64,000 bases of DNA, taken from the sequence record KX130865, one strand, 5' to 3'. Position 1 is the first letter of the stretch; every line of letters begins with the position of its first letter. Shown here one piece after another: positions 15,530 through 58,405 of the stretch. Source of the DNA: Shigella phage SHSML-52-1. A program made the translations under genes and the position numbers. The notes below the pieces were generated by a model, which saw only the letters and a program-made list of their open reading frames with translations, was not told the DNA's origin and searched no databases.

Positions 15530-15578
15530 GTTTACTTCTCCAGTAGTTGTGTTATTATAGACCTATCAACTACTGGAG
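15530..15578 (+). promoter_or_regulatory. PeSL-type cassette: early promoter with 12-bp inverted repeat (CTCCAGTAGTTG / CAACTACTGGAG)
   Basis: -35 GTTTAC 15530-15535, -10 TATTAT 15553-15558 inside the loop; downstream arm contains the RBS GGAG of ORF 15585. Confidence 0.55.
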
Positions 15579-39616: not shown

Positions 39617-40942
39617 ATGCAATTGAATTCTCGTAATCTAAAAAGTATTATTGATAACGAAGCCTTAGCATATGCGATGTACACCGTTGAAAACCGTGCA
39701 ATCCCAAACATGATTGATGGATTTAAGCCGGTTCAACGTTTTGTGGTTCATCGTGCATTAGATTTGGCTCGTGGTAATAAAGAAAAATTTCATAAACTTG
39801 CGTCAATTGCAGGCGGTGTTGCAGATTTAGGTTATCACCATGGTGAATCTTCTGCACAAGATGCAGGTGCATTGATGGCTAACACATGGAACAACAACTA
39901 TCCACTGTTAGATGGCCAAGGCAACTTTGGTTCTAGAACAGTCCAAAAAGCTGCAGCATCTCGTTATATTTTTGCTCGTGTAAGTAAAAATTTCTATAAC
40001 GTATATAAAGATACTGAATATGCTCCAGCTCATGAAGATAAAGAACACGTTCCACCAAAATTCTATCTTCCTATTATTCCGACAGTTCTTTTGAATGGTG
40101 TATCTGGTATTGCAACCGGTTACGCAACAAATATTCTGCCTCATAGTTTTAAATCGGTAAAAAAGGCTGTATTACAAGCTCTTCAAGGTAAAAATGTCAC
40201 TAAGCCAAAAGTTGAATTCCCGGAATTCCATGGTGAAGTACATGAAGTTGATGGGCGTTATGAGATTCACGGAACATATAAGTTCACATCTCGCACTCAA
40301 ATGCAGATAACTGAAATCCCATATAAATTCGACCGTGAAACGTATGTGAGTAAGGTTCTTGACCCGTTGGAAGACAAAGGTCTAATCTCATGGGAAGATG
40401 ATTGTGGTGAACACGGCTTTGGGTTTAAGGTGAAGTTCCGTAAAGAGTACTCGCTTCCTGATGATGAAGAGCTACGTCATGAAAAAATCATGAAAGATTT
40501 TAGTCTCATCGAACGTCGTTCACAAAACATCACAGTGATTAATGAAAAGGGTAAATTAGCAGTCTACGATAACGTAGTGGACTTAATCAAAGATTTTGTT
40601 GAAGTCCGTAAGACTTACGTTCAGAAACGTATTGACAACAAAATCCTTGAATCTGAAAAAGCATTTAAACTGGCTTTTGCTAAGGCACACTTCATCAAAA
40701 AAGTTATCAACGGTGAAATCGTGATTCAGGGCAAGACTCGTAAAGCTTTGACTGAAGAGCTAGCACAAATCGAAATGTACAAAGAACATGTCGATAAACT
40801 GGTGGGTCTTAACATCTTCCATATCACTTCCGACGAAGCACGTAAACTAGCAGAAGAAGCTAAAGCTAAGAAAGAAGAAAATGAGTATTGGAAGTCTACT
40901 GATGTTGTGACAGAGTACACTAAAGACTTGGAGGCACTTTGA
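39617..40942 (+). CDS. 52: topoisomerase II medium subunit gp52 (GyrA-like)
   Basis: 441 aa; N-terminus MQLNSRNLKSIIDNEALAYAMYTVENRAIPNMIDGFKPVQRF matches T4 gp52. Confidence 0.93.
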   Translation: MQLNSRNLKSIIDNEALAYAMYTVENRAIPNMIDGFKPVQRFVVHRALDLARGNKEKFHKLASIAGGVADLGYHHGESSAQDAGALMANTWNNNYPLLDGQGNFGSRTVQKAAASRYIFARVSKNFYNVYKDTEYAPAHEDKEHVPPKFYLPIIPTVLLNGVSGIATGYATNILPHSFKSVKKAVLQALQGKNVTKPKVEFPEFHGEVHEVDGRYEIHGTYKFTSRTQMQITEIPYKFDRETYVSKVLDPLEDKGLISWEDDCGEHGFGFKVKFRKEYSLPDDEELRHEKIMKDFSLIERRSQNITVINEKGKLAVYDNVVDLIKDFVEVRKTYVQKRIDNKILESEKAFKLAFAKAHFIKKVINGEIVIQGKTRKALTEELAQIEMYKEHVDKLVGLNIFHITSDEARKLAEEAKAKKEENEYWKSTDVVTEYTKDLEAL

Positions 40943-41017
40943 GTGCCCTAGCCTTAGGATTTCTCGGTGCAATAGCTGCACTAGTGATTTGGCTGTATTG
41001 GTTGGACAAACATGATT

Positions 41018-41055
41018 AGGGAGCTTCGGCTCCCTTTTGTGCATTTTTTTCTCAC
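41018..41055 (+). terminator. rho-independent terminator after gene 52 (AGGGAGC-UUCG-GCUCCCU + U-run)
   Basis: Perfect hairpin followed by TTTGTGCATTTTTTT. Confidence 0.7.
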
Positions 41056-41060
41056 AAAAC

Positions 41061-41138
41061 AGTTTACATGTGCTTCAAACATGATATTATAGACCTATCA
41101 AAACAAAACAGCCAAATTGGAGAAATAAAATGTCTAAA
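41061..41138 (+). repeat. promoter/RBS/start cassette, direct-repeat copy 1 (GTTTAC, MotA-box TGCTTCA, -10 TATTAT, GGAGAAATAAAATGTCTAAA)
   Basis: About 76 bp, roughly 85-90% identical to 41382-41457. Confidence 0.6.
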
Positions 41139-41345
41139 ATGAAATTAACCCAAAACACAACTACTCGTTTCGGTAAAGTTAAACCTGGTATGAATGCTCT
41201 CCGTAAAGCACTTGTTGAAGAATTAAATTTCTTAGAAGTTGAAATCAATTCTTTAGTGGTTCGCGGTTCAAATGGACATCATTTAGAAAAGCTTCGTTCT
41301 AAAAAGGCAAAACTTATTAGCCTTATTAAAGAAATGAGTTTGTAA
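41130..41345 (+). CDS. hypothetical basic protein (71 aa)
   Basis: Track ORF; starts MSK like motA because of the duplicated cassette. Confidence 0.5.
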   Translation: MSKMKLTQNTTTRFGKVKPGMNALRKALVEELNFLEVEINSLVVRGSNGHHLEKLRSKKAKLISLIKEMSL

Positions 41346-41354
41346 ATTTTACCA

Positions 41355-41374
41355 GGGCTTTTGAAAAAGAGCCC
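41355..41374 (+). promoter_or_regulatory. hairpin GGGCT…AGCCC between ORF 41130 and the motA cassette
   Basis: 5-bp GC stem with A/T-rich loop, followed by AAAATAAAG. Confidence 0.3.
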
Positions 41375-41381
41375 AAAATAA

Positions 41382-41457
41382 AGTTTACTTTTGCTTCAAA
41401 CATGATATTATAGACCTATCAAAACAAATACTAATTTGGAGAAATAAAATGTCTAAA
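41382..41457 (+). repeat. promoter/RBS/start cassette, direct-repeat copy 2 (drives motA)
   Basis: GTTTAC 41383-41388, TGCTTCA, -10 TATTAT 41406-41411, identical RBS and MSK start. Confidence 0.6.
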
Positions 41458-42081
41458 GTTACTTACATCATCAAAGCTTCTGAAAACGCTCTGAATGAAA
41501 AAACTGCTGCAATAATGGTTTATATCATTAAGAACAACTTCACCACTGCTGCCAATGTCCGTGAAGCTCTGGAAGCAGAATACAGTGCATCAGTTGTTAA
41601 CTCTAACATTGGTGTATTGATTAAGAAAGGTTTAGTCGAAAAATCCGGTGATGGACTTGTAGCAACAGGCGAAGCAATGGATATTATCCAAAAAGCTGCA
41701 GACCTCTTTGCCCAAGAAAATGCTCCAGAACTTCTTCAGAAACGTAACACCAGAAAAGCACGTGGAGTTACTCCTGAAATGCATGAATTAGCAAACTTTG
41801 TTTTTGAAAATATTAAAGATAAAGTTGAAGTTAAAGAAATTGGTGAAAACCGTAGTAACTTAGAAGTTCGATTCGCTAAACGAGTTCTAGGCATTCGCCA
41901 AATTGAAATTCGACGAGATGGCGCTCTTAGAATCTTTGCATACAACATGTCAGAAACTGAATCAAAGCTGTTTACTTCTCTTGAAAATGATGTTAAGATT
42001 AAGATCGGTGGTAAATATACTTACATTGACTTCCCTAATGTGTCTAAAGAAATCATTACCCTTGTAACTAACGTACTGTGA
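41449..42081 (+). CDS. motA: middle transcription activator MotA
   Basis: 210 aa; MSKVTYIIKAS…VVNSNIGVLIKKGLVEKSGDGL…QENAPELL matches recalled T4 MotA. Confidence 0.9.
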   Translation: MSKVTYIIKASENALNEKTAAIMVYIIKNNFTTAANVREALEAEYSASVVNSNIGVLIKKGLVEKSGDGLVATGEAMDIIQKAADLFAQENAPELLQKRNTRKARGVTPEMHELANFVFENIKDKVEVKEIGENRSNLEVRFAKRVLGIRQIEIRRDGALRIFAYNMSETESKLFTSLENDVKIKIGGKYTYIDFPNVSKEIITLVTNVL

Positions 42082-42091
42082 GGAATACATA

Positions 42092-42421
42092 ATGAATAAG
42101 CTGAATATTATTAACGAACTTCGTAAATGTGCAGAACCTACTCAGGAAGGATGGGATATTTGGTACCACGGGGCTTATTTAGGGACAATTGTAAAGATTA
42201 AAGCAGGCCAATATACGGTTATTCGTGAAAATAATGACGCGCCATTTGGCCTTCGTAAAAACTACATGGCAGCGATCAGTTCATTTGTTGATGCAGCTTA
42301 CGAAATCTATAAAGAAGATTATAAAGAATATCAGCAGTCACAACCGGTTATTCGTTCGATTGGTGTAAATAAACAAGCACAAAAATCTATTTGGCAACGT
42401 ATTAAGGAATGGTTTAAATGA
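42092..42421 (+). CDS. hypothetical protein (109 aa)
   Basis: Track ORF. Confidence 0.5.
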
Positions 42422-58359: not shown

Positions 58360-58405
58360 TGTTTACTTCTTCCCTTGTTTACTTCTTCCCTGGATGTGTT
58401 AGTAT
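58360..58405 (+). promoter_or_regulatory. early promoter with tandemly duplicated -35 region (TGTTTACTTCTTCCCT x2) and -10 TAGTAT
   Basis: 16-bp unit at 58360-58375 and 58376-58391; second GTTTAC is 17 bp from the -10 at 58400-58405. Confidence 0.5.

Follow-up and report, generated by a model that had tools for sequence, protein, structure and literature searches.

The 64,000-nucleotide stretch of Shigella phage SHSML-52-1 analysed here (KX130865, one strand; hereafter the window) carries two closely similar promoter, ribosome-binding-site (RBS) and start cassettes 5' of motA, with a 71-aa ORF (ORF71) between them. With a probability of roughly 80%, we read them as a cassette pair of the promoter-early stem-loop (PeSL) type flanking a small accessory gene, at an old, recombinationally active site. 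The window belongs to Mosigvirus, the RB69-like T4-type phages, and shares 98-99% identity with FP43, AV110, APCEc01 and many others. The region comprises the following features.

39617..40942, + strand: gene 52 (DNA topoisomerase II medium subunit), a 441-aa ORF with gp52 annotation in 98%-identical relatives.
40939..41019, + strand: putative gene, a MotA.1-like membrane ORF of 26 aa whose TTG start overlaps the gene 52 stop; translation MSALALGFLGAIAALVIWLYWLDKHD.
41019..41050, + strand: hairpin 1, terminator-like, GGGAGC-TTCG-GCTCCC followed by TTTTGTGCATTTTTTT; -15.5 kcal/mol, z = -4.07.
41061..41138, + strand: cassette copy 1 (10/12 consensus match, TG present), with -35 GTTTAC at 41062-41067, the MotA-box-like TGCTTCA at 41071-41077, TGn at 41082-41084, -10 TATTAT at 41085-41090, a predicted transcription start at ~41097, GGAG at 41119-41122 and ATGTCTAAA at 41130-41138.
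41130..41345, + strand: ORF71, between the cassettes, matching phrog_6200 (PHROG match E = 1e-39).
41355..41374, + strand: hairpin 2, GGGCTTTT-GAAA-AAGAGCCC followed by AAAATAAA, without a U-tract; -12.3 kcal/mol, z = -3.18.
41382..41457, + strand: cassette copy 2, with -35 GTTTAC at 41383-41388, TGCTTCA at 41392-41398, -10 TATTAT at 41406-41411, a predicted transcription start at ~41418, GGAG at 41438-41441 and ATGTCTAAA at 41449-41457.
41449..42081, + strand: motA, encoding MotA, the activator of middle transcription, a 210-aa ORF matching phrog_1345 (MotA-like, E = 8e-90) and annotated as MotA in relatives.

Global alignment of the two cassettes gave 71 identical columns of 78, with a single indel of 2 nt between the 78-nt copy 1 and the 76-nt copy 2, which bears out the first-pass annotation's claim of a duplicated promoter-RBS-start cassette at this place. 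Three runs are identical, at 41061-41067/41382-41388 (7 nt, AGTTTAC), 41071-41104/41392-41425 (34 nt) and 41117-41138/41436-41457 (22 nt, TTGGAGAAATAAAATGTCTAAA), and all four of the motifs GTTTAC, TGCTTCA, TATTAT and GGAGAAATAAAATGTCTAAA occur in both copies. The promoter core, GTTTACNNNTGCTTCAAACATGATATTATAG, has exactly two occurrences in the 64-kb window and none in 100 shuffles, and a local blastn search of the window with one copy as query recovered the other at E = 7e-20. The repeat distance between the copies is 319-321 bp. Stop codons lie 5' of the cassettes at 41017-41019 and 41343-45, and 5' of ~41053/41374 the copies have no relation to each other, a different hairpin standing at each. 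The -10/start region, TAYTATAGACCTATCAA, is the consensus of other early promoters of the window (15553, 16283, 24141, 29370 and 58400), and since at least five of these share it, that portion of the identity is family consensus; the parts specific to the pair are the spacer TGCTTCAAACATGA, AACAAA and the RBS/start block. The identity extends into the coding sequence: motA and the preceding 71-aa ORF do both begin with MSK (MSKVTY... and MSKMKL...), as the first-pass annotation had it.

Reviews describe the T4-type early promoter as an A-rich UP-like region, a -35 GTTTAC, TGn and a -10 TAnnAT, and by architecture both copies are predicted promoters of this type. Each has an A-rich UP-like stretch 5' of the -35 (CACAAAACA / CAAAATAAA), GTTTAC, a 17-bp spacer ending in TGn (here TGA) and TATTAT, followed by GGAG-N7-ATG. 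Each copy would thus serve as an immediate-early promoter for unmodified host RNA polymerase, and the 71-aa gene would be transcribed and translated from the same kind of signals as motA. The presumed leaders, of ~32 nt, are unstructured (fold z = 0.21 for copy 1 and 0.65 for copy 2). Reviews also list MotA among the early products of T4 and place a RegB cut in its mRNA within the GGAG Shine-Dalgarno (SD) sequence; the GGAG in both copies is the kind of site that this nuclease cleaves in T4 motA mRNA and may be cut likewise. Its 3' context, GGAGAAATAAA, agrees with the strong-site consensus GGAGRAYARAA at 5/7 positions, as against 6/7 for T4 motA.

The two hairpins would act differently. Hairpin 1 is GC-rich with a UUCG loop and a U-rich tail, its counterpart in SA79RD is annotated as a rho-independent terminator, and it would shield the unit from gene 52 transcription. 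Hairpin 2 has an A-rich tail and is probably an attenuator at best; as it lacks a U-tract and probably only attenuates, motA may be transcribed from both promoters. A terminator scan of the + strand called neither hairpin. The only Rfam match between 40800 and 41600, to preQ1-II, scored 27.4 bits against a gathering threshold of 47 and spans the terminator and the untranscribed promoter; we rejected it.

PeSL elements of T4-like phages consist of a stem-loop, an early promoter, an SD sequence and a start codon; ORFans lie between such elements, and through recombination between two of them genes are lost, gained or replaced and one chimeric cassette is left (Arbiol et al. 2010, PMC2839356; Comeau et al. 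2014, PMC4122927). The promoter formula given there for the T4/PST group, TTTACW-N17-TAYWAT, is matched by both copies, as TTTACA-N17-TATTAT at 41063-41090 and TTTACT-N17-TATTAT at 41384-41411. All defining PeSL features that can be read from sequence are present at the motA locus: the stop codon of the preceding gene in AT-rich sequence, a stem-loop, an early promoter of sigma70 type, an SD sequence and a start codon, with two copies around a small gene, one chimeric cassette kept by relatives without the gene, replacement of the ORF at the site and a family of such elements dispersed in the genome. The locus departs from the PeSL loci described there in lying between the conserved genes 52 and motA and not in a classic hyperplastic region, in having one copy that serves an essential regulator and in homology that runs through the first three codons. 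Neither Mosigvirus nor the motA locus is among the PeSL examples in the parts of PMC2839356 and PMC4122927 available to us.

The distribution of ORF71 among close relatives agrees with such a system. Flanks matching at 95-99% occur in about 150 Mosigvirus records, of which only 75 contain ORF71; those without it, RB69 included, have one cassette only, are shorter by ~320 bp and lack exactly one repeat unit. The single cassettes are chimeric, and in more than one way. In RB69, hairpin 1 and the upstream part of copy 1 are joined to a copy-2-type leader (CAAATACTAATTTGG). A copy-1-type leader (CAAAACAACCAAATTGG) is instead fused to motA in 308Ecol101PP, O157tp6 (O157 typing phage 6), phiE142, TH58, p000v and JK36, and mar008P4 is a three-part mosaic of copy-1 upstream sequence, the copy-2 spacer TTTT and a copy-1 leader. 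Single-cassette genomes of Dhakavirus likewise fall into two types, L022 on the one hand and KIT01/L024 on the other. At least two junction types within Mosigvirus cannot all be ancestral, and at least one must therefore have come from deletion between the copies, with crossovers at different points.

Homologous recombination in T4 deletes sequence between short direct repeats, and repeats undergo concerted evolution. The motA locus resembles that case in its direct repeats, with identical blocks of 22-34 bp ~320 bp apart, in one-unit differences between genomes and in patches of gene conversion. It differs in that the repeats are themselves predicted regulatory modules, so that every recombinant would retain a working promoter and RBS. 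We propose that the direct repeats act as substrates for homologous recombination, which would repeatedly have removed exactly one unit (the ORF and one cassette) to leave a single chimeric cassette, would have brought different small ORFs into other lineages and would keep the copies similar through gene conversion.

The arrangement is found beyond Mosigvirus. In 17 Dhakavirus records, JS98 and VR5 among them, ORF71, two cassettes and two hairpins lie between gene 52 and motA. The hairpins are orthologous across the genera: hairpin 1 corresponds to the hairpin 5' of Dhakavirus copy 1, and hairpin 2 to that of copy 2 (42/52 identical). Between the copies they are unrelated (25/53). The 26-aa ORF is also syntenic with T4 MotA.1 and with 34-aa ORFs of Dhakavirus. 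Between the window and VR5, ORF71 (dS 1.11, dN 0.28, dN/dS 0.25) is as diverged as motA (dS 1.05, dN 0.24, dN/dS 0.23), and the arrangement is probably at least as old as the common ancestor of Mosigvirus and Dhakavirus. The 'recent' insertion of the first-pass annotation is not supported by the comparison with relatives: 17 Dhakavirus and 75 Mosigvirus records have the ORF at this locus, and its divergence, equal to that of motA, points to an ancestral gene, the very outcome that the first-pass annotation had named as refuting its reading. This view of ORF71 as ancestral and repeatedly lost, with at least two independent losses as a lower bound, rests on equal divergence and on the existence of at least two junction types rather than on a dated phylogeny; judged by junction structure alone, deletion and insertion look the same, the PeSL model being reversible.

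Against this old framework the copies within a genome are alike. The promoter cores of the two copies agree at 41/41 positions in VR5, 41/41 in JS98 and 39/41 in the window. VR5 and JS98 each have a private variant that is present in both of the genome's copies (TTA vs TTC), and copy 1 of SA79RD has the copy-2 spacer variant; genome-specific variants common to both copies indicate gene conversion. In Dhakavirus the ORF starts with ATGAATAAG (MNK), and only 21/35 positions of the RBS/start segments agree between the copies, as against 31/36 in the window. That both proteins begin with MSK thus reflects a lengthening of the homogenised tract that is specific to Mosigvirus, where conversion would have reached through the RBS and the first three codons. 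We conclude that the copies are held alike by selection on promoter function together with gene conversion, and that homogenisation is the only recent part of the picture.

The gene between the cassettes has also been exchanged. In the Dhakavirus IME281 the same cassettes enclose another ORF, of 75 aa; KIT01 has none. The Tequatrovirus-like L046/L048 have a T4-type motA promoter, then the 75-aa ORF of IME281, a Dhakavirus-type hairpin and cassette, and a T4-like motA; the 75-aa ORF and its cassette were transferred between genera. Duplicated promoters of the GCTTYAAAC type also bracket further small ORFs in a Klebsiella Marfavirus, in L044 and in others, and hairpin 2 with its promoter also stands 3' of other ORFs in IME281, Marfavirus pzk-kv8, L035 and L046-48. 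At least six different small ORFs occur 5' of motA across the lineages. Cassette-like sequences were found at 2-5 places per genome in Mosigvirus and 6-9 in Dhakavirus, some of them beside unrelated genes. Cassettes of this kind do mediate gene gain and loss at the motA locus, and to this extent the cassette-mediated insertion of the first-pass annotation is right.

Two other accounts of the locus were considered. ORF71 could have been gained independently in Mosigvirus and Dhakavirus, by integration of a PeSL mini-circle or other horizontal transfer, with the ORF-less state, as in RB69, being ancestral. The reversibility of the PeSL model allows for this, a single cassette without ORF71 is the state of T4 and many other genera, and the Tequatrovirus-like genomes are a clear case of a different ORF arriving with a cassette at this very locus. 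We nevertheless consider it unlikely: the divergence of ORF71 between the genera equals that of motA and of gene 52, which would make any transfer as old as the split; both leaders, like hairpin 2, are orthologous between the genera; and the two or three chimeric junctions of single-cassette Mosigviruses, which cannot all be ancestral, require some deletions. The likeness of the copies could also owe nothing to duplication or recombination and reflect the convergence of strong early promoters and ribosome sites on an optimal consensus, since GTTTAC, TGn, TAYTAT and even AGACCTATCAA 3' of the -10 recur in several unrelated early promoters of the window. We give convergence hardly any credence, because the non-consensus TGCTTCAAACATGA and AACAAA, together with the 22-nt block through the start codon, are common to the pair and absent from the other promoters of the window, because VR5, JS98 and SA79RD show genome-specific variants in both copies and because relatives differ by exactly one unit with chimeric junctions, which already contradicts it. 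The PeSL-type pair at an old, recombining site accounts for the locus best.

A further reading, that of the first-pass annotation, takes TGCTTCA for a functional MotA box through which MotA regulates its own gene and ORF71, with the duplication marking a recent cassette-mediated insertion of the ORF. The box sequence is indeed there: the consensus, (a/t)(a/t)(a/t)TGCTT(t/c)A, is matched by TTTTGCTTCA in copy 2 and ATGTGCTTCA in copy 1. Of the 14 early-promoter spacers in the window only that of the cassettes holds TGCTTYA, and TGCTTYAAAC occurs in the window at these two sites alone, with 0.35 expected. We compared motA promoters at 32 IMG/VR loci, obtained by a MotA alignment search, and at fetched GenBank loci; (T)GCTTYAAAC is retained in those of Mosigvirus, Dhakavirus, Marfavirus and the L041-L048 groups, with MotA proteins that are only 50-70% identical. 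According to reviews, several early genes of T4 are over-expressed when motA is mutant, and how early promoters are shut off is incompletely understood.

Geometry and distribution weigh against it. In a middle promoter the box must stand 12±1 bp from the -10, where it takes the place of the -35 (review). The cassettes are like the MotA/AsiA middle promoters of T4, which work by sigma appropriation, in having the box core TGCTT(t/c)A and a good -10, but TGCTTCA ends 7 bp before the -10 in both, inside the spacer of an intact -35/TGn/-10 promoter whose -35 element is not replaced; a perfect GTTTAC at 17 bp with TGn makes a standard early promoter. The -10 candidates at 11-13 bp from the box (ATAGAC, TAGACC and AGACCT) are poor, and neither cassette is among the 14 window sites that fit the canonical TGCTTYA-N11-13-TAnnnT (2.0±1.6 expected). 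The motif is replaced in the motA promoters of T4, L027-30, L034, L035 and L038-40, and where it is kept its conservation does not exceed that of the remaining cassette sequence, and it occurs equally in the copy that drives ORFs other than motA. The insertion part of the reading is met by the presence of ORF71 at the same locus in Dhakavirus, diverged like motA. By their architecture the cassettes thus do not qualify as middle promoters. Regulation through this box is improbable in our estimate: the first-pass annotation was right about the sequence at the motA promoter, and the autoregulation that it drew from it is unsupported. The cassette pair leaves existing knowledge of MotA regulation unchanged.

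Two candidate patterns were set aside. A histogram of spacings showed 6 sites with TGCTTYA 7 bp from a -10-like hexamer where ~0.55 were expected, but as a class of 'gap-7' MotA boxes these are incidental: apart from the two cassettes they comprise two middle promoters of the canonical gap-12 kind, in which a TAnnnT happens to stand at 7 bp, and two intragenic sites. An inverted TGCTT seen by eye in the motA spacers of T4 and L051 was too weak a signal, and these share ancestry. It would be a long shot that TGCTTYA, placed ~5 bp 3' of the normal box position in the early promoter of motA in several genera, is an operator at which MotA, alone or with AsiA-modified polymerase, shuts the promoter off. 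If so, motA and whichever small ORF shares its cassette would be under negative autoregulation, and the site would offer a concrete way to study how T4-type early promoters are shut off, a process that is poorly understood.

The cassettes of the window are homologous to the known early promoter, leader and SD sequence of T4 motA. In T4, too, MotA.1 is followed by a hairpin terminator and then by GTTTAC ... TAYTAT, with ..CTATCAA.. in the leader, GGAG as SD sequence and ATGTCTAAAGT. The T4 locus differs in having one copy, an 18-bp spacer (AACCAAAGCATACTGTGG) without TGCTT on the top strand, and no 71-aa ORF.

ORF71 was found in 92 phage records (75 Mosigvirus and 17 Dhakavirus), at one place in each and always at the motA locus, and its confinement to one locus gives no sign of mobility of ORF71 itself. 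Its dN/dS against the Dhakavirus orthologs is 0.21-0.25; divergence and dN/dS like those of motA mark ORF71 as a real gene, kept by purifying selection and diverging in step with the genes around it. A Pfam search returned no significant family, and the searches gave no homologs outside the Mosigvirus and Dhakavirus groups, all 8 cluster homologs falling within the same phage groups. An AF2 model from the single sequence (pLDDT 82) has a disordered N-terminus of 20 residues followed by a helical hairpin, a generic fold for which comparison with the PDB gave no match below E = 0.6. ORF71 was left out of a recent screen of AV110 early proteins because it has no T4 homolog.

The locus is a natural example of how T4-like phages may gain, lose and swap small early genes with regulation unbroken, even 5' of the essential motA. 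The ~150 Mosigviruses, split about evenly between the two states and with several junctions, could be used to measure the rates of cassette-mediated deletion and gene conversion. The locus also flags a 71-aa early gene, predicted to be co-regulated with motA, that screens based on homology to T4 miss.

Features of the window relevant to this part of the analysis are as follows:
40939-41019, +, hydrophobic ORF of 26 codons whose TTG start shares bases with the stop codon of gene 52 (TTGA)
42092-42421, +, 109-aa ORF directly 3' of motA, an Arn.4 homologue
58361-58405, +, -35 block duplicated in tandem, GTTTACTTCTTCCCTT then GTTTACTTCTTCCCTGG, with one -10 (TAGTAT) after both
6220, 11399, 21650, 24102 (- strand), 52088 and 55232, example sites from a pattern search for TGCTTYA-N11-13-TAnnnT

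An extended -10/start consensus, TAYTATAGACCTATCAA, occurs both in the two motA cassettes, early promoter-RBS-start units flanking a 71-aa ORF, and in other early promoters at 15553, 16283, 24141, 29370 and 58400 (all +); this sequence is a genome-wide signature of the early-promoter family that reaches beyond the transcription start. The tandem -35 at 58361-58405 looks like a 'degraded PeSL' (promoter-early stem-loop), a product of recombinational slippage described by Comeau et al. 2014 (PMC4122927). A preQ1-II riboswitch match at 41003-41132 (+) was sub-threshold in Rfam (27.4 bits against a gathering score of 47, E = 0.025), covers the terminator and promoter, and was judged spurious.

The copy-2-type spacer TTTT was found in copy 1 of SA79RD (L001). 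In the single cassette of mar008P4 (L054), this patch is bordered on both sides by copy-1 sequence. Both patches are gene-conversion tracts only a few nucleotides long. In L046 and L048, two Tequatrovirus-like IMG/VR contigs, a 75-aa ORF also present in Dhakavirus IME281 now lies behind a T4-type motA promoter. Next come a hairpin and cassette of Dhakavirus type and then a T4-like motA. This arrangement, at about -412 to -66 from motA, apparently reflects intergeneric cassette transfer. The IME341-like Dhakavirus L026 has a 'half' cassette at motA (-120 to -1 relative to the gene), in which only the -10 and leader are retained; in place of the -35 and spacer stands the 3' end of another ORF, 73 aa long.

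The 26-codon ORF is syntenic with T4 MotA.1 (49 aa) and with 34-aa ORFs of Dhakavirus, and is seldom annotated among Mosigvirus records. The 109-aa ORF matches Gp94 'Emp' of Mosigvirus AV110 in length and position, within a region 98% identical between the two phages; Emp is a growth-inhibitory peptide targeting MreB/MreD-dependent peptidoglycan synthesis, according to a 2026 preprint.

Across the whole window, the canonical middle-promoter geometry TGCTTYA-N11-13-TAnnnT occurs at 14 sites, against 2.0±1.6 expected, and it is therefore clear that this phage makes use of MotA-type middle promoters spaced by the T4 rule.
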